Of a stretch of 47,298 bases of DNA, positions 21 through 40,061 are shown piece by piece. Position 1 is the first letter of the stretch. Every line of letters begins with the position of its first letter. Made by a program: the position numbers and the translations under genes. This DNA comes from Nanobdellota archaeon. Its GTDB lineage: Archaea; Nanobdellota; Nanobdellia; SCGC-AAA011-G17; GW2011-AR17. The notes beneath the pieces were generated by a model. It saw only the letters and a program-made list of their open reading frames with translations, did not search any database and was not told where the DNA came from. The DNA is taken from positions 1 through 47,298 of the forward strand of contig JAHIMK010000004.1 of NCBI GenBank assembly GCA_018896675.1. Direction: 5' to 3'.

Positions 21-389
21 TCACCTATTCACAAAAAACTGAAAGGAATTTATAAACCTTATTCGCATCTTTGTCAAGTGGCAAGTGGTTAAATAATTCC
101 GCAGCAAGCTGCGGGGTATTCCTATCCCATCAAGGAATAAATAATCGAAAGTTGTGCAATGTAAATATCTAGATTTCTTCCAAATCTTCTCTAAGTCTGT
201 TGTAAGCAAACTAAAGAACATTAAGAAAGTTCTTAATTTTTGCCCATAATATTTTGAAGTAAGGATTGCATAAGTTTTTTTCAAACAATCCAATTGATTT
301 TCAGATCTTTTTAATTCCTGAATAACTAACTGCATCGATTTAGGAATCTTTTCAGGGATTTTTTTCTTCCAAAATAAGTTGCTTAACAT
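21..389 (-). CDS. hypothetical protein (123 aa if started at Met62 of the 21..572 track ORF)
   Basis: This is the only long open frame in 1-470. The ATG at 389 lies ~26 nt downstream of an AAAACTTTTATAT box (plus coordinates 410-424, read on the minus strand), which is leaderless geometry. The upstream part of the track ORF overlaps the promoter of the 477 gene and looks like AT-rich shadow. No domain recognised. Confidence 0.4.
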   Translation of the reverse strand: MLSNLFWKKKIPEKIPKSMQLVIQELKRSENQLDCLKKTYAILTSKYYGQKLRTFLMFFSLLTTDLEKIWKKSRYLHCTTFDYLFLDGIGIPRSLLRNYLTTCHLTKMRIRFINSFQFFVNR

Positions 390-476
390 AAGATAATGAT
401 GGTTTTTAAGGATATAAAAGTTTTTTGACCTAAAATTATATAAATAAGATATCCTTTTTACATAAAAGGTGATAAT

Positions 477-749
477 ATGACAATTGAACAAGTAATAAAT
501 CCAAAAAAGAAAACAGATAAAGATCCAAAAGAAATATGGGCTAATACAGAAATGGATGTAACAAGAAGACAAGAATGTTTATGCTATAATTGTAATTGTA
601 TGAATGATCAACCACCTTATACTTCTTGCCCGGCAGCAAAAGCGCTTTTCGATGTTTGTGTAAATCATGCTATGGCAATGATGATAACAAGGTGCGGTGT
701 ACAAGATGAAGATGGAAACTTGCTTTACAAACCATTAAAGAAACAATAA
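477..749 (+). CDS. small Cys-rich hypothetical protein (90 aa)
   Basis: TATA-like AAAATTATATAAAT at ~432-445 and SD-like AAGGTGAT at 465-472 precede the ATG. Cysteines include CLCYNCNC.. and TRCG. No family recognised. Confidence 0.65.
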   Translation: MTIEQVINPKKKTDKDPKEIWANTEMDVTRRQECLCYNCNCMNDQPPYTSCPAAKALFDVCVNHAMAMMITRCGVQDEDGNLLYKPLKKQ

Positions 750-780
750 CGTTTAAATAACTCTTTATTTTATTTATTGT

Positions 781-1233
781 ATGCATAAAAGGGGTATGAG
801 TGCAATTATTGCTACAGTCTTAATAATAGGCTTAACAGTTGTAATTGCTGCAGCGATTATCATATGGGGTATAGGTTTTTCTTCTGATATTCAGGAAGGT
901 GCTGATGATAAGAATGACCAAACAATGTTCTGTGCAAATTCTAAAATTAAATTAAGAAATGGATGTTTAGAAAATAATCAACTTAAGTTACTGATAGAAA
1001 ATCAAGGCCAGGTAGCTTTAACAGGATTTAATGTAAGAGTTATTGGGTCAGCAAGTGCTTACGGCTCAAAAATAGAAAAAGATTTAGGAATAGCAGGAAT
1101 AACCCAAATTTTAGTAGATCATGATGATACAATCGGGACAATTAAATCAGTTGAAGTGTTGCCTATGCTAAAAGTTAAAGAAATGATTTCTTGTGCACAG
1201 AGTGATGAATTGTATTCTATAAAACCTTGCTAG
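781..1233 (+). CDS. archaeal type IV pilin-like protein (class III signal peptide, DUF361-type N-terminus)
   Basis: The N-terminus MHKRG|MSAIIATVLIIGLTVVIAAAIIIWG matches the archaeal pilin/flagellin prepilin pattern: K/R-G, then a hydrophobic helix of the 'SpvIatvLli' type. Confidence 0.7.
   Translation: MHKRGMSAIIATVLIIGLTVVIAAAIIIWGIGFSSDIQEGADDKNDQTMFCANSKIKLRNGCLENNQLKLLIENQGQVALTGFNVRVIGSASAYGSKIEKDLGIAGITQILVDHDDTIGTIKSVEVLPMLKVKEMISCAQSDELYSIKPC
1215..1232. repeat. 18-bp perfect direct repeat, copy A (TTCTATAAAACCTTGCTA)
   Basis: Identical to 1911-1928. It covers the stop and last 4 codons (SKVL*) of the methyltransferase and the last codons of the convergent pilin-like gene. Confidence 0.9.
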
Positions 1234-1909
1234 CCACTAAAAGATATTCATAAATTAAAGATTTTGAAGTATTTATGTCATAAAGTCTTTTTATTTCTTG
1301 AATTTCTTTTTTAGTTTTTAAAAATACTTTTTTAAAATTATAATCCTGAAAATTTGATTTTCTCATTAAATCTTTAATAGAATCAGGCGTATGATAACAT
1401 TGCCAACCAATGGTATCATTAACTCTTAATTGTTTATCATCTATTTTTAATTTCATATTAAAATATTTCATACCTTTTTGGGTGCTATCATAAGATACAA
1501 GAAAAGCAATAAATTTTCCATCTTTTTTTAGAACTCGATTAATTTCTTTTCCCATTTGATACACTTCTTTTCTTTCAGGAGGTAAAATAGAATTAACAGA
1601 TATAATGTTATCAAAAGATTCGTTTTCAAAAGGTAAATTTTTAGAATCTGCTAAAATATATTCTAGATTAGGATGTTGAAAATTCTTTTGTGCTATATCT
1701 AACATAGCCTGGCAAAAATCTGTAGCTATTACTTTATTATCTTTAACTAAATCTTTATTTAAATAAGTAGCTGAACCACAACCTAAGTTTAAAATTAAAC
1801 CTGAATTTATTAAATCTAAAATTTGTTTTCTTCTCTGTGGGATACTAGTTAAAGAAAAAACTTTCTTGTCATAATCTTCACTAAATCCATCCCATTCATC
1901 ACTTTGCAT
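1217..1909 (-). CDS. class I SAM-dependent methyltransferase
   Basis: Motif I ILNLGCGSATY, an acidic loop ..VIATDF, post-I/II motifs ADSKNLPF..FDNIISVN, and LKKDGKF. The start is 3 nt after the rad50 stop with no promoter of its own. Confidence 0.85.
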   Translation of the reverse strand: MQSDEWDGFSEDYDKKVFSLTSIPQRRKQILDLINSGLILNLGCGSATYLNKDLVKDNKVIATDFCQAMLDIAQKNFQHPNLEYILADSKNLPFENESFDNIISVNSILPPERKEVYQMGKEINRVLKKDGKFIAFLVSYDSTQKGMKYFNMKLKIDDKQLRVNDTIGWQCYHTPDSIKDLMRKSNFQDYNFKKVFLKTKKEIQEIKRLYDINTSKSLIYEYLLVASKVL

Positions 1910-1910
1910 T

Positions 1911-1928
1911 TTCTATAAAACCTTGCTA
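1911..1928. repeat. 18-bp perfect direct repeat, copy B (TTCTATAAAACCTTGCTA)
   Basis: Identical to 1215-1232. It covers the stop and last 4 codons (SKVL*) of rad50. Confidence 0.9.
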
Positions 1929-4006
1929 ATATGTTCATTCTTTTCAAACCTAATTACATTCTCAACAAAACTTTCAATCTTAGGTTCATGACTAACAATA
2001 ATTATTTGTCCAATGCTTAATTCATCTAATACTGCCCTCATATTATCTAATTGTTCACTTGAAAATCCGTCAGTAGGCTCATCTAAGATAATAATAGATC
2101 TAGTCTTTATAGAGCTCATAATGTTGTTGATTACTTGGTTTAAAGCTAATCTGTAAGCTAAGGCAGCCCCTGTCTTTTCACCACCAGATAAAAAGTCATA
2201 ATCTGTTTCATAACCATTCTGCTCAATTAATGGCGTAAATTCATTATCTAACTTGACTTCCATTGAATCATTTTCAATCAACATAGAGAACCATTTAGAG
2301 AATAAAGAACTAAAATCTTCATGCACTCTAAACATGATATGTTTTTCCATATTTCCCATTAATGGAATGAATTGGTCATTTAACCATGTTTGTAAACTAG
2401 AAATATGTTCAAAGTTTTTTCTGGCAGCCTCTTTATTGGCAATCTCTTTCTCTAAAGATTCAATAACAGTTTTTAACATTCTACAGCTAGTATCTAATTC
2501 AGCCTTAAGAACTTCTAATGTTCTATGTCCGTCTAAAGCTTTATCCAAATCTTCTTTTGCATTGCTAAATTCTGCATCAAAATTTTCAAATTGTTTTAAT
2601 CCTAATAATTTAGAATCTTTTTTGAATTGAAGGTCTTTACTTTCTTTATCTATACTTGACAATTGTTCTTCTAAAGATTTTTTCTTATTAATTTTTTCAT
2701 CAAACTCTCTTAGTTTAGACTGAGCAACCAAAATTAATTTTTCTTCTTCTCTTAATTTATCTAAATCTTCATTCAATTTAGATTTTAAGGCATTCAATTC
2801 TTGTTCTTTCTCCCCATTTAATTTATATTTTAAAGTTAAATCATTCAACTTAAATGTCTCTTCTTCGATTATGTTTATTTTATGTTCTGAACTAACTTCT
2901 TGGAAACAAGTAGGACAATTGTTTAATTCAGAAATCTTAGATTTCTTATCTTCAGCATGTAATTTTTTAACTTTCAATTCTTGAATCAAGTTTCTGATTT
3001 CAGTTAAAGAATTTTCAAGCTCCAGAATATCTTTTTTCTTGTTTTCAATATGCAAATGCAAATCTTCTTTAATCTCAACTTTTTTAAAATTAGTGATAAC
3101 AGCATCTAATTGTTTAATTTCCTCTGAGTTTCTTTGCTTTTGTTCATATAAATGTTTTAATTTTAAATCAGCCAACTCAATCTCTTTTTTTAATTCCCTA
3201 ATCCTTTCCATCTTTTTTTCAATTAAACTAATATTTTCTTTTTTGTTTTTAACATTCAAATTAGAACTTTCAAGTTTAGGCGTTAAATTCTTTAATTTTA
3301 ACTCAAACTCTAATAACTCTTCTTTCTTAGCTTTTTCAGAATCTCTTTTATTTACTAAATCTGAAATATAACCAGCTAGTTCTTTTCTTTTATCTTTCAA
3401 TTTAGAAATTACAATCTTGGCATTTTCACTTATCCTTTTATATTTGTCAATTCCAAAAACTTTTCTTAAAGTGTTTAATCTATCCTCTTTATCGCATGTT
3501 AAAATCTGTTTCATCTGTTCTTGTGAAGTGTAAACAGTATATCTATACAATAAATCATTCTTAGTCAAGGCTTCCTTAGGATAATTTAACATATCTAAGA
3601 TATGCTGTTTAAGCTCAATAGGCGTTCCTTTCTTTTCTTCATCATCTATAGAAATAAATCCTGAGTCTTGAATAACACTTGTTTTGCTTCTCTTTAAACC
3701 TCTGTTAATGACAACATTCTTGCCATCAATATCAAAATGTAATTCTACCCTGCCTTTATCTTCCCCGTTTCTTAACAAGGAAGCGCCTGAAAGTTCTCCC
3801 CTTCTAATACCGAACAAGGCAAAATCTATTGCCATTAAGATTGTGGATTTGCCGGAACCGATATTTCCTGCTAATAACAAGCTTCCCGGAGGAATATCTA
3901 TTTCGGCATTTAAATATGAACGAATGTTGTCCAAAACCACCTTTTTTATTATCATCAGCAGAAAGAATAAAATAGGACTATTTAAAGTTTTATTTAACTT
4001 AAGCAA
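1913..4006 (-). CDS. rad50: DNA double-strand break repair ATPase Rad50 (short coiled-coil form)
   Basis: Walker A GNIGSGKST, a long K/E-rich coiled coil with a central CxxC zinc hook (NNCPTCFQEV), ABC signature LSGGEKTGAALAYRLAL, Walker B IIILDEPTDGF and H-loop VSHE. An alternative start at 3955 (MIIKKVVLDNIRSY) fits the usual Rad50 N-terminus better. Confidence 0.9.
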   Translation of the reverse strand: MLKLNKTLNSPILFFLLMIIKKVVLDNIRSYLNAEIDIPPGSLLLAGNIGSGKSTILMAIDFALFGIRRGELSGASLLRNGEDKGRVELHFDIDGKNVVINRGLKRSKTSVIQDSGFISIDDEEKKGTPIELKQHILDMLNYPKEALTKNDLLYRYTVYTSQEQMKQILTCDKEDRLNTLRKVFGIDKYKRISENAKIVISKLKDKRKELAGYISDLVNKRDSEKAKKEELLEFELKLKNLTPKLESSNLNVKNKKENISLIEKKMERIRELKKEIELADLKLKHLYEQKQRNSEEIKQLDAVITNFKKVEIKEDLHLHIENKKKDILELENSLTEIRNLIQELKVKKLHAEDKKSKISELNNCPTCFQEVSSEHKINIIEEETFKLNDLTLKYKLNGEKEQELNALKSKLNEDLDKLREEEKLILVAQSKLREFDEKINKKKSLEEQLSSIDKESKDLQFKKDSKLLGLKQFENFDAEFSNAKEDLDKALDGHRTLEVLKAELDTSCRMLKTVIESLEKEIANKEAARKNFEHISSLQTWLNDQFIPLMGNMEKHIMFRVHEDFSSLFSKWFSMLIENDSMEVKLDNEFTPLIEQNGYETDYDFLSGGEKTGAALAYRLALNQVINNIMSSIKTRSIIILDEPTDGFSSEQLDNMRAVLDELSIGQIIIVSHEPKIESFVENVIRFEKNEHISKVL

Positions 4007-4039
4007 TAATTTTAAATATTCTCTAAATACTTTATAAAT

Positions 4040-5011
4040 ATGCGAAAAAAGAGGTCTTCTAAATTAAAGTATTTAATAGTAATAACTGTAATAATTTCAT
4101 TATTTTATTTGATTCTTTACTTATATTCATCGGGACATTTTTTTATTGAAATATCTTGCCCAGATGAAGGTGGCACCTGTAAATCTTCATGTAGTTCTTG
4201 GGAGTTTGAAGGTTTGGCATGTAGTCAAGATAATGTTTGTTGTATCCCATTAGAAGAAAATACTATCAAATTAGCAATGGAAAAAAGAGATATTAGCTTA
4301 TGTCAATTCATTACAACTACTATTGCGAAAAAATCTTGTGAATTAGCTGTTTTGGATATAATGGATTTTGATTTAGCATTAAATTTTAAAGATAGCAAAT
4401 ATTGTATTAATATTAAAAATCCATCAATAAAAGATTCTTGTTTTGAAGAATCTGCTTTACAAACAAATAATAAATCCTTATGTAGTTCAATAACTTCGAT
4501 AGAACTTAAAGATGTTTGTTTTCTAAATTTTGTTAACTCCAGAGAAGATAAAGTAATTTGTGATTTAATTTCTTCAGATTTTTACAAGGAAAGATGTTTA
4601 AAGAAAATAGCTGAAATTACTCAAGACATTTCAATTTGTTCTCAATTAAAGATTTATTCTGAATATTATGATTGTTTTAGCAAAGTTGACTTAAGAAAGC
4701 ATGCTACTTTTAATGCTGAATGTGAAAATCTTAACAAAGAAGACTGTAAAAGTCAAAGAGGTTGCAAACCTTTGATTATAAATGAGTTAAAACAGGCAGT
4801 TGAAGCTTATGGTGGTTGTGCAAGAGATGAAGAATTGTTTTGCACATTAACTCAGGGTTCATGGGAAGACATGCCTAACGCAATTATGCAAACTATAGAA
4901 AAAGGTTGCATCTGTAAAAATAACAAGGTATATTATAGGGGATATGGTTGTTTTGATTGCGATATCTTTTCAAATGAAAATGTAAGAAAAGATTGTAAAG
5001 ACAAATTATAA
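4040..5011 (+). CDS. membrane-anchored Cys-rich repeat protein, unknown function
   Basis: N-terminal K/R-rich segment plus a TM helix. Five or more degenerate ~30-aa units of the form D/N-x-S/K-x-C-x(10-13)-C (e.g. DISLCQFITTTIAKKSC, DSKYCINIKNPSIKDSC). TATA-like TTTTAAATAT lies ~26 nt upstream of the ATG. Confidence 0.7.
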   Translation: MRKKRSSKLKYLIVITVIISLFYLILYLYSSGHFFIEISCPDEGGTCKSSCSSWEFEGLACSQDNVCCIPLEENTIKLAMEKRDISLCQFITTTIAKKSCELAVLDIMDFDLALNFKDSKYCINIKNPSIKDSCFEESALQTNNKSLCSSITSIELKDVCFLNFVNSREDKVICDLISSDFYKERCLKKIAEITQDISICSQLKIYSEYYDCFSKVDLRKHATFNAECENLNKEDCKSQRGCKPLIINELKQAVEAYGGCARDEELFCTLTQGSWEDMPNAIMQTIEKGCICKNNKVYYRGYGCFDCDIFSNENVRKDCKDKL

Positions 5012-6208
5012 TCCTAATGATTTTAAAGCTTCAGTAGAAATTCTTATTTCAAAATCTGCACTTTTTTCGCCTTCAGTTCTTTCTTTGTCTAACAACTGAA
5101 TTAAATCGGTAATTAATCTCTTTTCAATTTTGGAATCATTAAACAATTTCGTGTTATAAGCATGCATTTCAATTAATTCAGGCTCAACATTTTTAACATC
5201 TTTGATTTCGTCATTTTGTTCAAACTGTATTGATAAAACTTTATTGGAATTTTTCATAATAAAATAAGCATCATCCATCTTAGAAAATATTTCTTTAAAA
5301 TCTAAATCAGATGGTTTGCCTTGCTTTAAAGTTCCTTTTAACCTCAGTAACACAATTTTGTCATTTGAATCTAATATAGAGCATTTTTCTATTAATTCAT
5401 CATTGACTTCTGAAGAAGTTTTATTGTCAACACTATAATCAATAGTAACAACATCTTTTAGCTTAACAGGAACATATTCTTTTGTTAAATTTCCATCATA
5501 ATTCACAACATAAAATCCTCCTTGCTTAAACTCTTCCATTTCTTTGAAATTATTTGGAAATAAAGCTCCTGGAAAAACTAGTTTGCCAGTACTATAATCT
5601 TTTTCTAAGATTGAATGTACGTGGCCACCTGCATAATAATCGAAATTTTTTGGCAGCTCAGCTTCTTTCATACTTTCCATCATTTCCATACCTTGGGGTT
5701 TAAGTTCATCAATAGCAGTATGGAACATAAAAATCTTAAAGCCTGATTCATTTTCTATGTTTGAAAAATCTAACTCTTTATAATCTTCTTTTTCTAAGCC
5801 ACCTTTTTTCCCGAGCATACCTGTAATCTTAATATCTCCTACTTGAGTAAATAATAATTTATTATCTTCAATTTTTACAACATTTTCGCACAATCCGGCT
5901 TTTTCTAAAACATCAAGCATAGTTTTGCCACTTGGAGAGAAATCATGAGATCCAGGTATAACATAAATTTTTATGCCTGCATCTTTTACTCTTTTCATAA
6001 TTCCAACAGTTTCTTTAATCAAATCAATTTGTGGTAAAGCTGTATTGAATAAGTCTCCAGCAATTAAAACAAAGTCCATAGAATGTTCTACACAGTATTT
6101 CATTGCTTTATCAAAAGCTTTCAAACTAAGCTTTTTCATTTTTGGATCTGACCAACCACCTATATGGCAGTCAGCTATATGTGCGAATTTCATTTTTAAA
6201 ATTAACAA
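5006..6208 (-). CDS. mre11: DNA double-strand break repair nuclease Mre11
   Basis: Calcineurin-like phosphoesterase motifs in order: HIADCHIG, AGDLFN, PGSHD, MFHTAI, GGHVH. The likely true start is MKFAHIADCH at 6193. Confidence 0.9.
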   Translation of the reverse strand: MLILKMKFAHIADCHIGGWSDPKMKKLSLKAFDKAMKYCVEHSMDFVLIAGDLFNTALPQIDLIKETVGIMKRVKDAGIKIYVIPGSHDFSPSGKTMLDVLEKAGLCENVVKIEDNKLLFTQVGDIKITGMLGKKGGLEKEDYKELDFSNIENESGFKIFMFHTAIDELKPQGMEMMESMKEAELPKNFDYYAGGHVHSILEKDYSTGKLVFPGALFPNNFKEMEEFKQGGFYVVNYDGNLTKEYVPVKLKDVVTIDYSVDNKTSSEVNDELIEKCSILDSNDKIVLLRLKGTLKQGKPSDLDFKEIFSKMDDAYFIMKNSNKVLSIQFEQNDEIKDVKNVEPELIEMHAYNTKLFNDSKIEKRLITDLIQLLDKERTEGEKSADFEIRISTEALKSLGL

Positions 6209-11261: not shown

Positions 11262-11579
11262 ATGAGCTTATTCCAATGCGATAGATGTGGATGTTTAGAA
11301 AATACTGCTTTAACCGAGTGTTCTTCTGATTATATGAAAATTTTTATTAAAGAATCTAAAGAGCTTAAAGAATATAAAAAAGAATTAGGCTTAAATGAAA
11401 ATCAAGAATTTGGAAATTATTGCTCTGCATGTTGTCCATTAGGAGAGAGAAAATGGCATGGAGAATTTCCTAGAATCTTTTTACCCAAAGGTGAATTTGA
11501 AACAGCTCCGAATGGAAATATAAGGCCTAAGAAAATATTAGATGAAGATGTTGAAAAATATGCTTTAAAAATTGAGTAA
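11262..11579 (+). CDS. Cys-rich hypothetical protein (105 aa)
   Basis: CDRCGC...C and CSACC pairs suggest a zinc ribbon-like module. A TATA-like box is upstream. Confidence 0.6.
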   Translation: MSLFQCDRCGCLENTALTECSSDYMKIFIKESKELKEYKKELGLNENQEFGNYCSACCPLGERKWHGEFPRIFLPKGEFETAPNGNIRPKKILDEDVEKYALKIE

Positions 11580-11596
11580 CAAAAACCTTTATATAA
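11578..11596 (+). promoter_or_regulatory. BRE/TATA promoter (AACAAAAACCTTTATATAA), leaderless geometry for the 11618 gene
   Basis: The 19-mer is identical to 11988-12006. The TATA core is centred ~26 nt upstream of the ATG at 11618. Confidence 0.7.
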
Positions 11597-11617
11597 CAGA
11601 TAATTGTCATTTTTTCC

Positions 11618-11983
11618 ATGACTTCGCAAAACATTTATGAAATAATGGCCAAAGTATTTAGTGAGATTGAAAAAGAACCTACTAAATTAACTAATTTACC
11701 TTTTGAATATGTTGGGATGGAAGATGAAAGGGCTTTCACAGTAGAAAATTTAGAAACTATTGCTTGTAATCATGTATTTGATGATAATCCAATTTTTTTT
11801 GGGATAACAGAACTTGAAGGATGGACAATAAGGTCTTATTTCACAACAGGTGCTGTAACTTATGATTATGTTCAAGATTTACGAAGAGAATTTCCAGATT
11901 TCTTCAAATGTCCTGAATCACAAGAATATATTAATTCTGTAAATAAACGTAGAAAAAAATTAGGATTAGATTCTATTTCTTGA
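11618..11983 (+). CDS. hypothetical protein (121 aa)
   Basis: The ORF has a canonical upstream promoter box. No family recognised. Confidence 0.6.
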   Translation: MTSQNIYEIMAKVFSEIEKEPTKLTNLPFEYVGMEDERAFTVENLETIACNHVFDDNPIFFGITELEGWTIRSYFTTGAVTYDYVQDLRREFPDFFKCPESQEYINSVNKRRKKLGLDSIS

Positions 11984-11987
11984 TTCC

Positions 11988-12006
11988 AACAAAAACCTTT
12001 ATATAA
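11988..12006 (+). promoter_or_regulatory. BRE/TATA promoter (AACAAAAACCTTTATATAA) for ppsA
   Basis: The 19-mer is identical to 11578-11596. It is followed by SD-like GGGGTGAT at 12033-12040 and the ATG at 12044. Confidence 0.7.
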
Positions 12007-14430: not shown

Positions 14431-14895
14431 ATGAAATTAATAAATAAAATTTTAGGAACTTTATCCTTAACAGGATTACTTTTGACTAGTGGGGCTTGCG
14501 AAAACAAAGAGATTATAAAAGACATTAGATATAGTATCCAACTTAATGAAATTACAAGATGTGAATCTATTGAAAATAATTATCAAAGAATTGTTAAAGT
14601 TTTTAAAGAGAATAAAGAATTAGGAAATTTATCAACTATTGGAAATAATAAAGAATTAGATTTTGCTATAAGAAGAATGACATATGTTAAAGATTCTAAT
14701 ACAAAATGTAGATTTTATGGTGGGATGGCATATATTGAAAATTCTGATTCGAAATATATATTTAATATGGTAGAGTATAGTCCTATAAATCAAATAGACA
14801 AATTTAATTTAGATGATGAACTTAAAGAGAAAATGAAAGATACTTATTTATTTTTGAAGATGTGTGATTTAAAATTAATAGAAACTTTTGATTAA
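14431..14895 (+). CDS. putative lipoprotein, unknown function
   Basis: Signal peptide ending in the lipobox-like LLTSGAC. Confidence 0.55.
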   Translation: MKLINKILGTLSLTGLLLTSGACENKEIIKDIRYSIQLNEITRCESIENNYQRIVKVFKENKELGNLSTIGNNKELDFAIRRMTYVKDSNTKCRFYGGMAYIENSDSKYIFNMVEYSPINQIDKFNLDDELKEKMKDTYLFLKMCDLKLIETFD

Positions 14896-25368: not shown

Positions 25369-25521
25369 TCCCTCCCGCCGGATTTGAACCGGCAACCTCA
25401 CGGGTACAGCTGACCGCATTTCATACATTGTCTTTTGGACATCGTCGTACGGTATCTACAGCCGTGTGCTCTGCCATTGCTCTTTAACCATTTAATGTGG
25501 AAAAATTTGAGCTAGAGAGGG
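25369..25521 (-). tRNA. tRNA-Tyr (anticodon GUA) with two introns (D-loop and 37/38)
   Basis: Minus-strand read. Acceptor CCCTCTC/GGGAGGG (C1:G72) with discriminator A. U8 A9. D stem GCTC/GAGC. Anticodon stem CACGG/CCGTG with loop CUGUAG..C (anticodon at 25457-25459). Variable loop AGGTT. T arm GCCGG-TTCAAAT-CCGGC. The gene is 153 nt; removing ~29 nt from the D loop (~25479-25507) and 51 nt at 37/38 (25405-25455) leaves a 73-nt cloverleaf. CCA is not encoded. Confidence 0.85.
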
Positions 25522-25556
25522 CTGTAAAGGGATTCTTTAAAAATGAATGATATCTC

Positions 25557-26363
25557 TTATTTAAATATGTTGCTTTTTTCCAAATTTTTTCTTTTTCTAG
25601 GATAATAAGAGCAATTTTCAGAATATAAGTAGGAACATAGTTTTTTACTTTGATTTTTATTGATATGTATTGTCCAAGCAGTTTTTTGTAATTTAGGTAA
25701 TGGTATGTTTATATTGAACCTGTTTAAAGCTTTGATAAAATCCATTAAGAATTCTTTTGAACCGGAACAAAGGCTTATGGTCCATTTGCCTATCCAACCA
25801 TCTCCATCTATTACTCCTCTTAAAAAACTAGCTAAATTTATTTTATCAGATTCAAAGAAAATTTTAGGAAATCTTGTTATTAAAGATTTGTTTCCAAAAG
25901 AGATGTTAAAATATTTATTAATAAAGATACTTAAACTTTTAGAATTTATATAAATGTCATAATTTTGTCTTTTATTAAATCCATGTTTTTTCTTTTTATA
26001 GATGCCGGGATTATAATTAAATAAATTTATTATTAATTTTTTTATTACTTTAACCTCTTCTTCATAACTAGAATATATACTAATTTTAGCTATTCTTTTT
26101 ATTTTATTAAACTGGATATGCCCATCAGTAATAAGTAATCCAATAAAATAAGATAATTCTGGGCTAAGTTTTTTAGGCAATTTTGCCTTTTGAAATTCTT
26201 TAACTTTAAAACCTGCTATTGCCATAGCCTTATTCCATGTTCCAAAATATTTTCTTGAAGCTGAGTAAAGAGTAGAATCCATTCTTTTAGTTGGCCTTCT
26301 ATTTCGTTCTTTTTTTAAATTTAAAATTCTCAAAATTACTTTTTCTTTATTCCATTTAGTCAT
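25557..26363 (-). CDS. LAGLIDADG homing endonuclease (double-motif), free-standing
   Basis: Two LAGLIDADG motifs (YFIGLLITDGHI and FLRGVIDGDGWI). The N-terminus has a homing-endonuclease-associated repeat-like segment (RKYFGTWNKAMAIAGF). The stop is 35 nt upstream of the tRNA-Tyr 5' end on the same strand. Confidence 0.85.
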   Translation of the reverse strand: MTKWNKEKVILRILNLKKERNRRPTKRMDSTLYSASRKYFGTWNKAMAIAGFKVKEFQKAKLPKKLSPELSYFIGLLITDGHIQFNKIKRIAKISIYSSYEEEVKVIKKLIINLFNYNPGIYKKKKHGFNKRQNYDIYINSKSLSIFINKYFNISFGNKSLITRFPKIFFESDKINLASFLRGVIDGDGWIGKWTISLCSGSKEFLMDFIKALNRFNINIPLPKLQKTAWTIHINKNQSKKLCSYLYSENCSYYPRKRKNLEKSNIFK

Positions 26364-34563: not shown

Positions 34564-34633
34564 AAGTATTCCTCTTTTTAATAAATACTAAGTTAGTTTG
34601 AATATATATAAACTTTTCGAGAACTTATTTTTT

Positions 34634-34720
34634 AGTTTTAGAAGCTTTCTTTGTTATTGTTTAGTTTGATTTTGATTGGATTAATTGTTGTTTATTGGCA
34701 GGGGCAAGGTTATTTAATTT
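34634..34720 (+). repeat. repeat R, copy R1
   Basis: AGTTTTAGAAGCTTTCTTTGTTATTGTTTAGTTTG.. matches R3 at 34 of the first 35 nt. The inner end ..GGCAGGGGCAAGGTTATTT is similar to those of R3 and R4. Confidence 0.85.
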
Positions 34721-34729
34721 TTATTATCG

Positions 34730-35020
34730 GAAGATTTTATGTTCCAATTAACAAAAGAAGAAGTTGAAAACTTGAGGTGTCAAAATGGTACTTCAAGAGC
34801 CAAACAATCTTTAAGGTCACAAAATGTGGCTTTAGAAGCAGAAGACTTGATGTCGTAAAATGCGACTTCAAGTAATGAACCTTCTTTAAGATTCCAAATT
34901 GGAACCTTAAAGATTAAAGGAGATTTAAGATTGCAAAATGCGACCTTAGAAATAAAAAGAGGTAAACATAAAAAATATTTGCCTTATGTATTTGCCTTAG
35001 CTAACAAAGCTAGTTGTTGA
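34730..35020 (+). pseudogene. ORF6N-domain protein C-terminal fragment with in-frame stop
   Basis: A single frame reads EDFMFQLTKEEVENLRCQNGTS..LRSQNVAL..LMS*NATS..LRFQIGTL..LRLQNATL..RGKHKKYLPYVF. This is the FMFQLTxEExxNLRSQxxTS...GGRRYLPYAFTE signature of ORF6N proteins. The N-terminal DNA-binding half is absent, there is a TAA at 34856-34858, and the 3' end runs into repeat R2. Confidence 0.75.
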
Positions 35021-35064
35021 TATAAAAGAAAGACAAAGCAATTAATGAAAGCTTCTATAATAAA
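34990..35064 (-). repeat. repeat R, copy R2 (partial, inverted)
   Basis: TTTGCCTTAGCTAACAAAG...AATGAAAGCTTCTATAATAAA aligns with R4 (CTTGCCTCTGCTTAACAAAG...AATGAAAGCCTCTATAACAAA). Confidence 0.7.
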
Positions 35065-35658
35065 TTATTTTTGACTTATAGATATATATGAATCACAAGT
35101 TTTATGAATTTTGATAATATTTAATTTTAAAGAATTTAACATTTCTTGTATCTCTTCTCTTTCATAAGCTTTTACAAAAGTATTGCTCTTTTTCATTAAA
35201 TATCCGTCTTTGAAAGGAATGCCTTTAGGCCTAACATATTTGTTTATGTCATAAGAGTTTCTTAAAGATAAAATAAAGTAACCACTTTCTTTAATTGCAT
35301 TATAAACTTTTTTAAAAACTTCTTGCCTTTGTTTTTCAGTTGGCAAAACTTGAATAACAAAATTTAACATGGCAGCATCATAATTATTTCTTAAAATCTC
35401 TGTAGAAACATTATTTACTTTCTTTACTTTTTCAACATCAATTCTTTCAACTTGCTCTTCTAAATCAACAGCATCAACTTTAAATCCTTGTTCAGCCAAA
35501 AATAAAGAATCTCTTAAGAATTTACCACAGCCATAATCTAAAACTGTTCTAACCTGTTTTTCTTGCAAAAAAGGAAGAATTTTCTCCTTCATTATTTTAT
35601 TAGGTTTTGTCTTGCTTGAAGAAAGGTGGTAAACAACATTTTCAATTGAAGGTTTCAT
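35065..35658 (-). CDS. class I SAM-dependent methyltransferase
   Basis: Motif I VLDYGCGKF, acidic KVDAVDL, and AAMLNFVIQVL. It has its own TATA-like box upstream on the minus strand. Confidence 0.8.
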   Translation of the reverse strand: MKPSIENVVYHLSSSKTKPNKIMKEKILPFLQEKQVRTVLDYGCGKFLRDSLFLAEQGFKVDAVDLEEQVERIDVEKVKKVNNVSTEILRNNYDAAMLNFVIQVLPTEKQRQEVFKKVYNAIKESGYFILSLRNSYDINKYVRPKGIPFKDGYLMKKSNTFVKAYEREEIQEMLNSLKLNIIKIHKTCDSYISISQK

Positions 35659-35698
35659 AAATCGTAGTAAAGTAAATAGTATATATTAAATTAATTGA

Positions 35699-35797
35699 TA
35701 AACTTTATAAAATAGCTATTTTTCAATTAAAAATATGTTAGTAAAAATATATGGTTTACTGGATTTTAATAATATTTAAGCTTAAAGAATTTAACAT
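35699..35797 (+). repeat. duplicated promoter and 5' end of the 37956 gene, fused to a 31-nt methyltransferase fragment
   Basis: 35699-35766 matches 37921-37987, with AAACTTTATAAAA and AAAAATATGTTAGTAAAAATATATGG(T/A)TTACTGGATTT identical. 35766-35797 matches 35112-35142 at 28/31. Confidence 0.85.
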
Positions 35798-35885
35798 AGT
35801 TTTAGAAACTTTCTTTGTTATTGTTTAGTTTGTTTTTTGTTGAGTAGGTTATTTGATGGCAGAGGTAAGTGTTATTGAGCTTAAT
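35798..35885 (+). repeat. repeat R, copy R3
   Basis: See R1. The inner end GCAGAGGTAAGTGTTATTGA matches the reverse complement of R4 at 19/20. Confidence 0.85.
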
Positions 35886-35977
35886 GTATGTTAATTTCAA
35901 TAAAATTTCCATTTTCAATTAATAAAATGCAAAGCTTTATATATTATTGACATCTTCTCTATGACAAGTGATATAAT

Positions 35978-36568
35978 ATGTATGACAAGACAGAAATTAG
36001 GATTTTGGAACAAATATATCTTAATCCCGGGATTCATAAGAGAAAACTTTCCAAGCAACTCAAATTAGGAATGCCATCTATAGATTACGGACTTAAAAAA
36101 ATAAATAAATTAATTAAACAGAAAAATGTAGGTAATCAGATTAATTATTTCTTGGATTATTCAAAAGAAATGCTTAGTTCAGCACTTGGCTCTGTTGAAC
36201 ATTCCAGATTTGAGAGACTCCCACCAAAAGTAAGATTATCTGTAAATGATTTCTTAAAAGAATTAGATGAAAAGCCAATAATTGCTGTTATTTTTGGTTC
36301 TTATGCAAGTAGCACTTATACAAAGAACTCAGATATTGACATTATGTTAGTTTTTCAGAAGATTGAGGATTCTAAGAAGATTGAAAATACTGCAAAGAAA
36401 ATTAGCATGAAAACCAATACACAATTAAATCCCGTTTATCTTAGTTATCAAGAATTCAAAGAATCATTCCACAATTTAACTAAGGAATTTTTCAAAAAGC
36501 TTAAGAAAGACAAGATAATTTTAATTGGAATTGAATGGTGGAGGCAATTAATTGATGAAGAAGCCTAA
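35978..36568 (+). CDS. nucleotidyltransferase (MNT-like) with N-terminal wHTH
   Basis: The N-terminal ~90 aa is HTH-like (ILEQIYLNPGIHKRKLSKQLKLGMPSIDYGLKKI). This is followed by the pol-beta NTase motif IFGSYASSTYTKNSDIDIMLVF (GS..DxD). Confidence 0.8.
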   Translation: MYDKTEIRILEQIYLNPGIHKRKLSKQLKLGMPSIDYGLKKINKLIKQKNVGNQINYFLDYSKEMLSSALGSVEHSRFERLPPKVRLSVNDFLKELDEKPIIAVIFGSYASSTYTKNSDIDIMLVFQKIEDSKKIENTAKKISMKTNTQLNPVYLSYQEFKESFHNLTKEFFKKLKKDKIILIGIEWWRQLIDEEA

Positions 36569-37097
36569 TTGGAAGATTTGGTTAAAAGACAAGAAAGAAT
36601 GTAAATTTTGGCTAGATAGGTATATCAAGAAAAAGATACTTAAGAAAAGTTCTAATGAATCAAGATTACACTTAAGAAGAACAGATCATAACTTAACTTT
36701 TGCCAATTGGATTATTGAAAAGCATAAGAATGAAATTCCAGAAGTTTTTGGTGGCGATAATTTTTATGATTGGGTAATCAGTATTTATTACTACGCAATT
36801 TATCATGCCGCTTTGGCTTTAATAAGTAAAGAAGGATTTACTTCAAAAAATCATTCTGCAACTTTGGCTTTTCTGATTTACCATCATTACCATTTGCAGA
36901 AAGCACTTGAAAAAGAAGATGTTGAATTAATCGCTAGTTCTTTAGACAGAGAAGATATTGAAATTCTTGGTGTTTCAAAGGAATTAAGAGAAAAAGCGTG
37001 TTATGATATTCATGAAATATTTGAGAAGAAATTAGCTGAGCAGATCAAGGAAGAAGCAGTTGATTTTGCAAATAAGATTAAGATGTTGTTGAAATAA
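36552..37097 (+). CDS. HEPN domain protein (partner of the nucleotidyltransferase)
   Basis: Overlaps the NTase gene by 17 nt. The all-helical pattern YYYAIYHAALALISKEGFTSKNHSATLAF is typical of NTase-associated HEPN proteins. Confidence 0.65.
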   Translation: MMKKPNWKIWLKDKKECKFWLDRYIKKKILKKSSNESRLHLRRTDHNLTFANWIIEKHKNEIPEVFGGDNFYDWVISIYYYAIYHAALALISKEGFTSKNHSATLAFLIYHHYHLQKALEKEDVELIASSLDREDIEILGVSKELREKACYDIHEIFEKKLAEQIKEEAVDFANKIKMLLK

Positions 37098-37189
37098 CTA
37101 TTTATCTTTACAGTTATCACACATAAATTGGAAGAATTTTCTGTATCCATCTGTTAACATTTTTCTTTTTAGAATAAATTGTAGACTTC

Positions 37190-37501
37190 AAAAACTGAAC
37201 TGGTCACAAATTGAGACTACTTTAAATCATTAAAATATTCTACTCAATTACCTTATATTTTTACAGAACAGGGTGTTGCAACACTTTCTGGGATTTTAAA
37301 AGCAAAAAAGCAGTTGAAGTTAATATTTAAATTATGAGGGCATTGGGAAATTATCCTAAAAAAAAACAAGATGTTGTAGGAGATTATGTTTCTGAAGAAT
37401 TACGGATAGCATTAGAAACATTGAATTCTATTAATGACCCACCAAAAGAAAATATTGTTTCTGTGGTTAGAGGTTCACTTGGATATTTACAGCGACCTTG
37501 A
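37190..37501 (+). pseudogene. degraded ORF6N-domain gene remnant
   Basis: LNWSQIETT (37198-37224), then in another frame LPYIFTEQGVATLSGILK (37248-37301), then after a further frameshift and stop KSKKAVEVNI*IMRA. These are conserved ORF6N C-terminal motifs scattered over three frames. The 55-aa ORF 37334-37501 is the tail. Confidence 0.65.
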
Positions 37502-37608
37502 GTTTACCCCTTTTCTAAAATTAGCATTTTAAAAATTGATTTTATTTTCTAAAAAAGAAAATTGGTAATTTCATTAATTATATAAAATCTCTTCTATTAA
37601 AACAATTA

Positions 37609-37780
37609 TGAAGATTTTAGCGATAGGAAATCCGCATGGAAAACTTCCAAAAAATTTAGATTCTATCATTAAGAAAAATAAAATAGAAATTATAATTTGT
37701 GTAGGGATATGGCATATATTCCTAAAAAACCTTGGATAGAAGATTCTTGGAAAGGCACCAGTCAAAAAGTAGTCTTTTAG
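37609..37780 (+). pseudogene. metallophosphoesterase N-terminal stub (frameshifted, truncated)
   Basis: MKILAIGNPHGKLPKNLDSIIKKNKIEIIICVG reads on as DMAYIPKK.. only after a 1-nt shift at the GGG run near 37708. It stops after ~57 codons. A leaderless-type TATA (TTAATTATATAAAA) is upstream. Confidence 0.6.
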
Positions 37781-37829
37781 TGTAAGCGTTCTTATCATCT
37801 AGGTCACAAAAAATTGAATATGAACATCT

Positions 37830-37926
37830 ATTAAGTATAATTCAATAACACTTGCCTCTGCTTAACAAAGAATTTCTTCTACCAAAAACAATACAAACAA
37901 AATAATGAAAGCCTCTATAACAAACT
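37830..37926 (-). repeat. repeat R, copy R4 (inverted)
   Basis: The reverse complement reads ..TTATAGAGGCTTTCATTATTTTGTTTGTATTGTTTTTGG...GCAGAGGCAAGTGTTATTGAAT.., collinear with R1 and R3. Confidence 0.8.
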
Positions 37927-37955
37927 TTATAAAACAATTATCTTAAATCAAAAAT

Positions 37956-38219
37956 ATGTTAGTAAAAATATATGGATTACTGGATTTAGCATTAGGAATA
38001 AACTTACTATTCTTATATTGGAATATCTTTCCATTTTCAGTATTAATCTTTGCCTTACCTATTTTAATCAAGGCAATCTATTACATTAAAGATCCTTCAA
38101 GCATTGTAGATTTAGTTGCTGTAATTTTTACAATTCTAGCTTTCTTAGGTTACTTTCCAATCTTTACATTTGTATTTGCGTTTTGGTTTTTACAAAAAGG
38201 CTTTAGAAGTATGTTTTAA
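37956..38219 (+). CDS. small membrane protein (87 aa)
   Basis: Three predicted TM helices. Promoter AAACTTTATAAAAC is upstream. The first 11 codons are duplicated at 35735-35767. Confidence 0.6.
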   Translation: MLVKIYGLLDLALGINLLFLYWNIFPFSVLIFALPILIKAIYYIKDPSSIVDLVAVIFTILAFLGYFPIFTFVFAFWFLQKGFRSMF

Positions 38220-39404: not shown

Positions 39405-40061
39405 ATGGAGAATAAAATAACTTTAGAAAAAGTTGCAGATTTTAATTTCAATAAGATAAGGGAAGAAAGGATTGCACCACAATCTTTAACTTTTAGTCCT
39501 GATGGAAAATTATTGGCAGTAGCTTCAATAGATCGTGGCTTTAATAGTTTAGTTAATTTGTTTAAAATAGGTAAAAAATTATCTTTGAAAGATGAAGTGA
39601 TTATAGGAGACCATTATACTATTAAAGACGCTTTTTTTGATATTACAGGATCATATTTAATAACTTTAGGCAGTTATCCTTTTTATGGTTATCATCCATT
39701 AAAATCATTTAAATTAAATAAAGAGAAAATAAAATTAGGTTTTAGAAAGGATGGTATTTCAAGATCAGTTTCTTTATTAAAACAGAAAGATTTGAGTATT
39801 TTAGATTGTGCCTATTTGGATTATTGTAAGAAAGAAGAGATAGATAATTATTCATATATAAAACAAAAAGAACTTAAAAAACTTGATCTTGATTTTCTAA
39901 ATGAATTATCTAAAAAATCAAAGTTAAAGTTAAAAAAAGAAGAGAGATTATTATTGCCTGTACTTAGTCCTGATAATAGCCTCTTAGCAACTATTAGGCA
40001 TTTTGAGGGTCTTGGTGTTTCAGAGACATGTTTCTTAGATTTATATAAAATAAAGGCTTAA
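39405..40061 (+). CDS. hypothetical protein with beta-propeller-like SPDG motifs
   Basis: Strong SD AAGGAGG lies 8 nt upstream. LTFSPDGKLLAVAS and LSPDNSLLATI resemble WD40/TolB-like blade motifs. Confidence 0.55.
   Translation: MENKITLEKVADFNFNKIREERIAPQSLTFSPDGKLLAVASIDRGFNSLVNLFKIGKKLSLKDEVIIGDHYTIKDAFFDITGSYLITLGSYPFYGYHPLKSFKLNKEKIKLGFRKDGISRSVSLLKQKDLSILDCAYLDYCKKEEIDNYSYIKQKELKKLDLDFLNELSKKSKLKLKKEERLLLPVLSPDNSLLATIRHFEGLGVSETCFLDLYKIKA

Follow-up and report, generated by a model that had tools for sequence, protein, structure and literature searches.

Foreign DNA can be joined to a genome without any mobile element, as is known for double illegitimate recombination and SPDIR in Acinetobacter baylyi and for MMBIR/FoSTeS. 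The incoming DNA has no homology, or only a few bases of it, at its ends, and it is joined during replication or repair, accompanied by small, variably sized duplications or deletions of the target. The SPDIR model, as outlined in a preprint, is that ectopic single strands anneal at microhomologies and are built in during replication (bioRxiv 10.1101/2023.11.22.568220). The locus described here shares the element-free insert and the small target duplications of variable size. However, the described systems were studied in bacteria and mostly concern short patches, whereas here a whole 0.7-kb gene has been fixed in an archaeal lineage; in addition, the duplication regenerates two overlapping gene ends exactly, and microhomology is only a possibility. 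In the 47-kb stretch of DNA from a groundwater DPANN archaeon (Nanobdellota) that was analyzed (47,298 bp, hereafter the window), a methyltransferase gene is associated with an exact 18-bp direct repeat at the end of rad50. The comparisons below show that this foreign promoterless gene was inserted where rad50 overlaps a pilin-like gene, with an 18-bp target duplication. On balance, it is probable that this happened by element-independent recombination followed by selection, and that the gene is expressed via rad50.

Several mobile elements resemble the locus in part. As in insertion sequences and casposons, an exact target repeat abuts both ends of the insert, and relatives contain empty sites with one copy. 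Typical IS duplications are 2–14 bp and casposon duplications 14–15 bp; the 18 bp found here is longer. Unlike these elements, the insert has no terminal inverted repeats and no associated transposase or casposase, it is present in a single copy in the window, and the duplications vary in length (18, 19 and 39 bp in the cases described below). As to an insertion sequence or another transposon, MITE-like ones included, the insert contains the methyltransferase ORF only, its ends have nothing in common with those of a second insert described below, and Pfam revealed no transposase in the window; neither a Cas1 casposase nor a family B polymerase was found in the insert or in the window. Elements integrating into the 3' ends of tRNA or protein genes likewise double the interrupted gene end and leave their target intact, but they encode an integrase and bring the repeat with them as attP. 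In the present case, a single promoterless ORF was inserted and the repeat belongs to the native target; the 678 bp are filled by the methyltransferase, with no tyrosine or serine recombinase.

Integron cassettes are comparable in that a lone promoterless ORF lies just downstream of a promoter-driven resident gene and would rely on read-through. Unlike them, the locus has no attC, attI or IntI, its non-coding DNA amounts to 1 nt at the 5' side and none at the 3' side, and integrons duplicate no target. There is no room for an attC site, the 3' end of the ORF overlapping the pilin-like gene by 17 nt, and searches of the window revealed no tyrosine recombinase. Finally, eukaryotic processed retrogenes are also promoterless genes of about transcript size within a target duplication of ~7–20 bp; in contrast to them, the insert has no poly(A) tail and its 3' edge lies within the coding sequence, and neither a reverse transcriptase nor LINE-like machinery is evident.

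The 18-mer TTCTATAAAACCTTGCTA occurs on the + strand at 1215–1232 and 1911–1928, with a spacing of 696 bp, and no further copy was found in the window with up to two mismatches allowed. The original prediction had reported these two copies, a shared ..SKVL-stop ending of rad50 and the methyltransferase, and a methyltransferase ATG 3 nt past the rad50 stop, all of which we found in the sequence. On the + strand, the left copy encodes the C-terminus SIKPC of the pilin-like protein and TA of its stop codon, which is the real protein end; on the − strand it supplies the last codons and the stop of the methyltransferase (SKVL-TAG). The right copy contains the native C-terminus of Rad50 (SKVL-TAG) on the − strand, and on the + strand a non-functional ghost of the pilin C-terminus, in which A1929 completes a TAA stop. 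It had also been noticed that either copy could end the pilin-like gene. The left one reads SIKPC-TAG and the right one would read SIKPC-TAA.

The unique inserted DNA is located at 1233–1910 (− strand) and comprises 678 bp, or 696 bp if one copy of the repeat is counted. It consists of 1 nt followed by the methyltransferase gene from its ATG to the second base of Ala-226, and it has neither a promoter nor a 3' untranslated part. Its ends, GCCACTAAAAG... and ...CACTTTGCATT, form no inverted repeat. The claim that the copies exactly bracket the methyltransferase ORF is correct for the insert but not for the ORF itself, since the left copy lies inside it as its last 16 nt. The methyltransferase ATG (1907–1909) and the rad50 stop (1913–1915) are in the same frame. 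The last 17 nt of the pilin-like gene overlap with the 3' end of the methyltransferase gene; before the insertion they overlapped with rad50.

The rad50 gene (1913–3955, − strand) encodes a protein of 680 aa. Its start was placed at ATG 3955, as in the gene calls of loci L006–L009, and not at TTG 4006, where the mechanical ORF list begins it. The translation contains the Rad50 motifs (Walker A GNIGSGKS, zinc hook CPTC, LSGGE and Walker B IIILDEP) and matches the AAA_23 and SbcC Walker B profiles, and mre11 is found in the neighborhood (5006–6208; partial scores, under the equivalog cut-offs). The description of the site as a DSB-repair operon is inexact: an opposite-strand gene (4040–5011) splits rad50 from mre11, and rad50 has a TATA box of its own. 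The convergent gene (781–1233, + strand) encodes an archaeal type IV pilin/archaellin-like protein (150 aa) that carries a class III signal peptide (N-terminus MHKRGMSAIIATVLIIGLTVV; TIGR02537 arch_flag_Nterm, 23.9 bits with a cut-off of 20). Its homologues occupy the same position in the related loci L014 (82% identity) and L001 (49%). No tRNA or other known RNA was revealed in the window by ARAGORN and Rfam.

The inserted gene (1217–1909, − strand) is intact and encodes a class I SAM-dependent methyltransferase of 230 aa, as follows from Pfam, AlphaFold and a family alignment (A1). It scored 61.1 bits with Methyltransf_25 (cut-off 27) and 58.4 bits with Methyltransf_11 (cut-off 21.2), and the motif LNLGCGSA of the glycine-rich SAM loop is conserved across the family. 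The AlphaFold model (pLDDT 95.4), with alternating strands and helices, confidently predicts a Rossmann-like seven-stranded fold; the best PDB folds were all SAM methyltransferases, with TM-scores of 0.6–0.7. As to a specific function, sequence and fold searches, PDB included, returned only generic class I methyltransferases, and all NCBIfam equivalogs scored far under their cut-offs (e.g., UbiE, 44.8 vs. 216 bits).

As judged from comparison with its homologues, the methyltransferase gene is foreign to the rad50/pilin position, because its closest homologue is just 64% identical, the homologues are found in unlike contexts, and they have TATA boxes of their own while the gene in the window has none. 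In the eight homologue loci compared the neighbors all differ and rad50 is present in none; own TATA boxes were seen at homologues P0002 and P0003. This is the survey of genomic contexts that had been suggested for the gene, and its outcome is in line with an insertion. Nucleotide composition was uninformative as a mark of foreign origin, with GC content (24.5%, z −1.5) and GC3 (12.6%, z −1.2) inside the host range. At the homologues elsewhere, nothing beyond TATA-like matches of 8–10 nt was found as flanking repeats. A viral or plasmid vector was considered and rejected: no viral or plasmid-like contig contained the methyltransferase gene, IMG/VR contained no relative of it or of the 121-aa ORF described below, and two unrelated viral contigs contain the 18-mer a single time each, as would be expected by chance.

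Most genes of this genome have a TATA box 27–31 nt before the ATG. By this standard the methyltransferase gene has no promoter box of its own, in agreement with what had been proposed. The sole promoter-like element upstream of it is the TATA box of rad50, TTTAAATA (3979–3986, − strand), located 31 nt before ATG 3955. Most likely, this promoter would drive the methyltransferase gene as a second cistron behind rad50, and ribosomes would re-initiate 3 nt past the rad50 stop; the arrangement thus suggests co-transcription and translational coupling of the two genes. Three groundwater metatranscriptomes from one source study contained no reads from this locus.

The empty site that the original prediction had anticipated, a rad50/pilin-like overlap with one 18-mer, was found in L014. 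This locus (Rad50 85% identical) contains a single copy of the identical 18-mer, and its rad50 and pilin-like genes overlap by 17 nt. Its two BLAST blocks against the window overlap by exactly 18 nt, and the window minus 696 bp corresponds to L014 nearly base for base. In the more distant L001 (Rad50 64% identical), the two genes likewise overlap by 17 nt, and the register is identical. Both sites support the proposed single-gene insertion with target duplication. The tail of Rad50 is SKVL in the window and in L014 and SRAL in L001; therefore, the SKVL tail is native to rad50. Members of the methyltransferase family end with ..LLVAxK-stop, and the window protein, ending with LLVASKVL-stop, has two extra residues (VL).

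The identities of Rad50 (85/64/65%) and of the pilins (82/49/49%) give the tree ((window, L014), L001), and a single insertion in the window lineage is therefore the most parsimonious history. In the opposite scenario, the methyltransferase gene and its repeats would be ancestral and lost from the lineages of both L014 and L001; direct repeats of 18 bp that recombine would indeed leave precisely the empty site observed. This scenario is very unlikely: the tree demands two independent precise deletions, more distant Rad50 loci (L002–L005) carry other downstream genes, the methyltransferase homologues never adjoin rad50, and the repeats themselves would still require an insertion. A precise deletion between repeats in the L014 lineage is possible and counts against the best explanation.

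The 18-bp repeat by itself is only weakly significant in a 47-kb window with 29% GC: the longest repeat at a spacing of 60–4000 nt reached 17–18 nt in four of 30 Markov shuffles. The decisive test is ORF bracketing. In all 100 shuffles (47 ORFs tested) the longest ORF-bracketing repeat did not exceed 15 nt, while the window has repeats of 18 and 19 nt. The filled form with both 18-mer copies was present in at least five independent assemblies (samples), and contigs from four groundwater runs covered the junctions. An assembly artefact, raised beforehand as a possibility that would overturn the finding, is ruled out by these independent assemblies and by the contigs over both junctions. Although an AT-rich window of this size can occasionally yield an 18-nt exact repeat, chance or misassembly as the origin of the repeat is refuted by these data together with the existence of empty sites, and its probability is negligible. 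Among the assembled contigs examined for population polymorphism, we found no alternative joints.

The arrangement had been called unusual, which needs to be qualified: it recurs, once more within the window and once in a different lineage. In the second event (11578–12006, + strand), a 121-aa ORF (11618–11983) is bracketed by an exact 19-mer, AACAAAAACCTTTATATAA, at 11578–11596 and 11988–12006, which is the BRE/TATA promoter of PpsA. The insert (11597–11987) has 21 nt upstream of its ATG and shares no end sequences with the methyltransferase insert. The corresponding empty site, with a single 19-mer, was found in L057. An analogous case with a 39-bp duplication was revealed in the Pacearchaeota locus L039. 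In addition, at least four other gene-sized indels, seen in comparison with a relative, have no duplication.

The following course of events can be proposed for the methyltransferase gene. A piece of foreign DNA of about ORF size, with neither promoter nor terminator, entered the 17 nt by which rad50 and the pilin-like gene overlapped tail to tail, and 18 bp of target sequence were duplicated. As this 18-bp stretch holds both gene ends, each neighbor keeps its own, the right copy providing that of rad50 and the left copy that of the pilin-like gene. The methyltransferase, reading into the left copy, gains SKVL-TAG of rad50 and restores the 17-nt overlap with the pilin-like gene. As to the molecular route, replication may have switched template to the donor and returned 11–18 nt behind the point of departure, guided by a microhomology of a few bases; alternatively, a staggered break may have captured a fragment, with subsequent filling-in of its overhangs. 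Only products with both interrupted genes restored would survive the selection that follows. The ends of the homologues (GCx-xxx-AAR-TAA) can be compared with the target (ATT-AGC-AAG), and P0002 has AAAATG preceding its coding sequence. Microhomology is thus possible at both junctions, which are resolved to a few bases and not to a single base.

We consider illegitimate, element-independent recombination with selection most likely, and favor it over a dedicated mobile element because the duplication lengths vary (18, 19 and 39 bp), the insert ends are unlike and no recombinase was found: among ~45 ORFs of the window searched with Pfam and NCBIfam, there was no transposase, integrase, reverse transcriptase or Cas1. 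It should be mentioned that the near-equal lengths of 18 and 19 bp in two events within 47 kb could hint at an enzyme with a fixed stagger, and count against a random process. Also, the insert edges are ORF-precise, which is rare for a random fragment and counts against the best explanation. A dedicated sequence-independent integrase, casposase/Cas1-like or other and encoded elsewhere in the genome, could insert DNA of ORF size at the boundaries of genes, its stagger being fixed at ~18–19 bp. It would account for two independent single-gene insertions with exact duplications, for insert edges near ORF edges, and for the fact that both duplicated pieces end with a TATA-like TTTATA[G/T]AA directly upstream of the insert (in the orientation of the inserted gene). 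Nevertheless, such an enzyme is unlikely: none was found in the window, the two inserts have no common ends and no terminal inverted repeats, known casposases duplicate 14–15 bp and not 18–19, the analogue in L039 duplicated 39 bp, and at least four indels have no duplication at all. It is likewise rather improbable that Woesearchaeota-like archaea possess an undescribed sequence-independent gene capture, in which ORF-sized DNA, or cDNA of leaderless mRNA, is placed at gene boundaries or promoters with a duplication of ~18–19 bp. If true, newcomers would receive a resident promoter or transcript while their neighbors stay undamaged, a functional archaeal analogue of integron cassette capture.

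Integration of the Campbell type deserves about as little credence. In this case, a small circle with the methyltransferase gene and the 18-mer, e.g., a cassette looped out of a related genome, would recombine with the chromosome across the 18-bp identity; the junction of such a circle would read ..GTGGC-18-mer-AATGCAAAG.. A single crossover gives exactly the observed structure, and the 696-bp unit is a complete gene (a 693-bp ORF plus 3 nt). However, the 18-mer is part of the native rad50/pilin overlap, so the circle would have to derive from an earlier insertion at the same site, which merely pushes the origin back; moreover, there is no integrase or vector-like contig, and the viral matches are due to chance. 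The same end product would result from two steps, a tandem duplication of 18 bp that separates the overlapping genes and a blunt landing of the methyltransferase gene between the copies. Slippage duplications of this size are common, but two events would be needed, the second at one exact phosphodiester bond; both L014 and L001 still have the overlap and neither contains the tandem intermediate, and the same coincidence would have to occur again at 11578/11988 and in L039, which makes this pathway hardly credible. Even less probable is the insertion of a reverse-transcribed leaderless methyltransferase mRNA in the manner of a processed retrogene. The missing promoter, a 5' edge 1–4 nt ahead of the ATG, at the point where leaderless transcripts begin in genomes of this type, and a duplication within the 7–20-bp range of retrogenes speak for it. 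Against it, the 3' edge falls within the coding sequence or at its end and not at a terminator, the window contains no reverse transcriptase, and the second insert has 21 nt upstream of its ATG. A search of the literature on archaea and DPANN revealed nothing specific on a mechanism with 18–19-bp duplications.

The event is an ordinary gene gain, clean and verified, and not a new kind of system. It provides a clean natural record of gene gain in a compact DPANN genome, with filled and empty sites and junctions resolved within a few bases. An insertion that hits two overlapping, essential-looking genes need not do harm if the overlap is duplicated; the newcomer owes to rad50 its stop codon, two additional residues at the C-terminus and, probably, its transcription, and in the second event duplication of the PpsA promoter gave the newcomer a promoter. 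These events and the many other gene-sized indels relative to an 80–87% identical relative document high gene flux in DPANN genomes. Exact ORF-bracketing repeats that hold gene ends or promoters represent a signature that could be mined across metagenome-assembled genomes and could separate random recombination with selection from a dedicated mechanism.

It should also be mentioned that methyltransferase codons 2–6 (1889–1906) show inverted similarity to the pilin codons QSDEL (1198–1215). As a junction signature it was rejected: AAAGTGATG is already present at the corresponding position of the closest homologue, and pairing would give the opposite gene orientation. The similarity is probably coincidental.

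The DNA is archaeal and AT-rich (29% GC); its relatives and identical proteins belong to Woesearchaeota/Nanoarchaeota (DPANN) genomes that stem from metagenome assemblies of groundwater. The 18-mer TTCTATAAAACCTTGCTA, which according to the original prediction brackets a methyltransferase gene at the rad50 stop codon, was indeed found as two exact copies (1215–1232 and 1911–1928), with no third site in the window when two mismatches were allowed. The copies enclose a gene for a class I SAM methyltransferase of 230 aa (1217..1909, minus strand; Methyltransf_25 and Methyltransf_11 above cut-offs) between rad50 (1913..3955, minus strand; AAA_23 and SbcC Walker B matches, CPTC zinc hook) and a pilin-like gene (781..1233, plus strand; TIGR02537 above cut-off). 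Rad50 and the methyltransferase share the end SKVL-TAG, as predicted, with the methyltransferase starting in frame at an ATG 3 nt beyond the rad50 stop. The pilin end SIKPC-TAG is encoded by the left copy; the right copy would read SIKPC-TAA. At 1907–1915 the sequence reads TAG AAA ATG with both genes in frame, and UAG read-through at the rad50 stop would yield a Rad50-methyltransferase fusion protein.

By itself, an 18-nt repeat at an arbitrary place in DNA of this kind has little significance: repeats of 17–18 nt appeared in 4 of 30 shuffles. Repeats bracketing an ORF, of which the window has one of 18 and one of 19 nt, did not exceed 15 nt in 100 shuffles. An assembly artefact, named beforehand as a possible refutation, is contradicted by five independent assemblies from different samples (L006, L007, L008, L009, and L013), all with the order rad50-methyltransferase-pilin and both 18-mer copies, and by contigs from four groundwater runs, two of which span both junctions and two cover one each; no alternative joints at the junctions were seen in them. 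Two of the five assemblies (L006 and L007) represent a strain that is identical to the window over 171–3622 and differs by 2–5% over 3623–5449, a stretch that takes in ORF 4040..5011 together with the 5′ end of rad50 and the 3′ end of mre11. The mosaic suggests that strains exchanged this tract by homologous recombination.

The empty site expected by the original prediction, with rad50 overlapping the pilin-like gene and one 18-mer, was revealed in the metagenome contig L014, which encodes a Rad50 with 85% identity to that of the window. There rad50 ends with ..ATT AGC AAG GTT TTA TAG AAT TCA ATT CAT CAC.., its overlap with the convergent pilin-like gene (82% identical) measures 17 nt, and the 18-mer, unchanged in sequence, occurs a single time. 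In BLAST comparison, positions 4–4603 of L014 correspond to 6512–1911 of the window and 4586–5078 to 1232–740. The two blocks have exactly 18 nt in common, and the window minus 696 bp matches L014 nearly base for base. A second empty site, L001 (Rad50 64% identical), also shows a 17-nt overlap, in register with that of L014; in the more distant Rad50 loci L002–L005 the downstream genes are unrelated. The tree that follows from pairwise identities is ((window, L014), L001), so that one insertion in the window lineage would suffice to explain the data; the reverse direction would need two precise deletions. The empty site in L014 thus supports the proposed insertion with duplication.

The closest homologue of the methyltransferase is 64% identical. 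Its genomic contexts, to which the original prediction had also pointed, comprise eight different neighbourhoods for eight homologue loci, none with rad50. The predicted fold is a confident Rossmann methyltransferase (pLDDT 95), and sequence and fold matches were to generic methyltransferases only. The family C-terminus is ..EYLLVAxK-stop, whose lysine does not vary among 30 sequences, and the window protein ends with LLVASKVL-stop; the Rad50 tails are SKVL in the window, SKVL in L014 and SRAL in L001. The VL and stop of the methyltransferase were thus borrowed from the duplicated rad50 tail. Since the window codons AGC AAG align with the family xK and homologues end with GCx-xxx-AAR-TAA, the 3′ junction could sit anywhere within at most 7 nt, a possible microhomology, and the duplication actually made may have been 11–18 bp. 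On the 5′ side the insert begins 1 nt before the ATG (at most 4 nt counting ambiguous A's); AAAATG is also found in the homologue P0002.

It should be noted that inverted similarity adjoins each 18-mer copy (1198–1215 and 1889–1906): methyltransferase codons 2–6 (CAAAGTGATGAAT, QSDEW) resemble the pilin codons QSDEL at 15 of 18 nt in the window, and an exact match of 13 nt joins them to the pilin gene of L014. This is probably chance, because the nearest homologue already carries AAAGTGATG at the position of codons 2–6. A further homologue (L018, 2974–3683; 65% identity in the best segment), from a high-GC uncultured archaeon, is split in two frames, which would reflect a frameshifted pseudogene or else misassembly, and places the family outside low-GC DPANN genomes as well.

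Most genes of this genome have a TTTAAATA-like box 27–31 nt upstream of the ATG, a spacing that corresponds to leaderless transcripts. Such boxes precede rad50 (at −31 from the ATG at 3955) and the pilin-like gene (−29), and the homologues P0002 and P0003 have their own. The predicted lack of an own promoter box holds for the methyltransferase, whose upstream region contains neither this box nor the GGAGG that precedes several other genes. Given this distribution of boxes, the likeliest reading is that the methyltransferase gene is transcribed together with rad50 from the promoter of the latter and that translation re-initiates 3 nt past the stop; three metatranscriptomes contained no reads. 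The duplicated overlap preserves two genes and gives the newcomer its stop and probably also its transcription. The term DSB-repair operon in the original prediction is inexact: mre11 (5006..6208, minus strand) and rad50 are parted by an opposite-strand gene (4040..5011; 323 aa, no family match). L014 and L001 share this layout; rad50 thus has a promoter to itself and does not belong to a contiguous mre11-rad50 operon.

A scan of all 47 ORFs for bracketing repeats gave one further case, the exact 19-mer AACAAAAACCTTTATATAA at 11578–11596 and 11988–12006 around a 121-aa ORF. This 19-mer is the BRE/TATA promoter of PpsA and is kept ahead of that gene in L019. In the relative L057 (82–87% DNA identity) a 105/106-aa upstream gene abuts a single 19-mer, with PpsA next in order, and the BLAST blocks overlap by 19 nt. 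Through the duplicated promoter the 121-aa ORF, for which neither a Pfam match nor any relative in GTDB representative genomes was found, has a TATA box exactly 30 nt before its ATG. The stretch 11578–12006 is a second insertion of one gene with target duplication. At an unrelated Pacearchaeota locus (L039, 1277–2383) two copies of an exact 39-mer lie 1068 bp apart, the downstream one shortly before PpsA. The 39-mer holds the final 13 codons of a gene for a uL16/L10e-like ribosomal protein, and its copies bracket a 1068-bp segment with two small genes. The real ribosomal protein gene gains a new TAG stop, completed by the insert; the right copy is left as a ghost C-terminus. The remaining gene-sized differences between the window and its relative L057/L060 are without duplication.

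The methyltransferase insert consists of a single ORF and lacks inverted ends, and the ends of the two window inserts have nothing in common. The 47 kb encode no transposase, integrase, reverse transcriptase or Cas1, and no viral contigs with either inserted gene were found. Duplications of 18, 19, and 39 bp occur alongside events with none. Taken together, these features fit element-independent illegitimate recombination; a dedicated capture mechanism, to which the near-equal duplications of 18 and 19 bp and the ORF-precise insert edges could point, seems to us quite improbable. Illegitimate recombination could proceed by template switching with return to a point behind the departure, or by a staggered break that is filled in and then captures a fragment. 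A bioRxiv preprint (10.1101/2023.11.22.568220) describes microhomology-based integration during replication in bacteria, to which the window event may be likened. Selection would keep duplications holding the 17-nt gene overlap, the ~19-nt promoter or a gene 3′ end, because only such products leave the neighbours functional. The feature is a well-documented case of a known kind of event, horizontal gene insertion with target duplication, and no new system; its worth lies in being a clean example with a signature minable elsewhere.

Gene flux relative to L057/L060 is very high: over ~34 kb (7000–41000; 76–87% DNA identity) at least seven differences of gene size, either presence/absence or replacement, were revealed. 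Some of them fall in variable regions that are treated on their own in this text; among the others, a DegT-like gene is present in the relative only, ORFs 14431..14895 and 39405..40061 in the window only, and an AAA_28 gene stands where the relative has a RelA/SpoT gene. A tRNA-like 5′ portion (~25440–25525, minus strand) has ~29 nt extra in the D-loop region versus the relative and adjoins a LAGLIDADG homing-endonuclease ORF (25557..26363) missing from the latter; neither ARAGORN nor Rfam reported a tRNA in the window, so this may be an intron-containing or split tRNA. The region 34600–38000 is complex and variable. A 137-nt segment, single in L060 (18687–18823, reverse-complement coordinates), is found there twice, once as a complete copy (37852–37987) and once as a split copy (34991–35064 and 35700–35766), with another small SAM methyltransferase gene (35065..35658), the second in the window, interrupting it. 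The space between the copies is taken by a nucleotidyltransferase/HEPN pair (35978..37097); L060 has a MazE-like gene instead.
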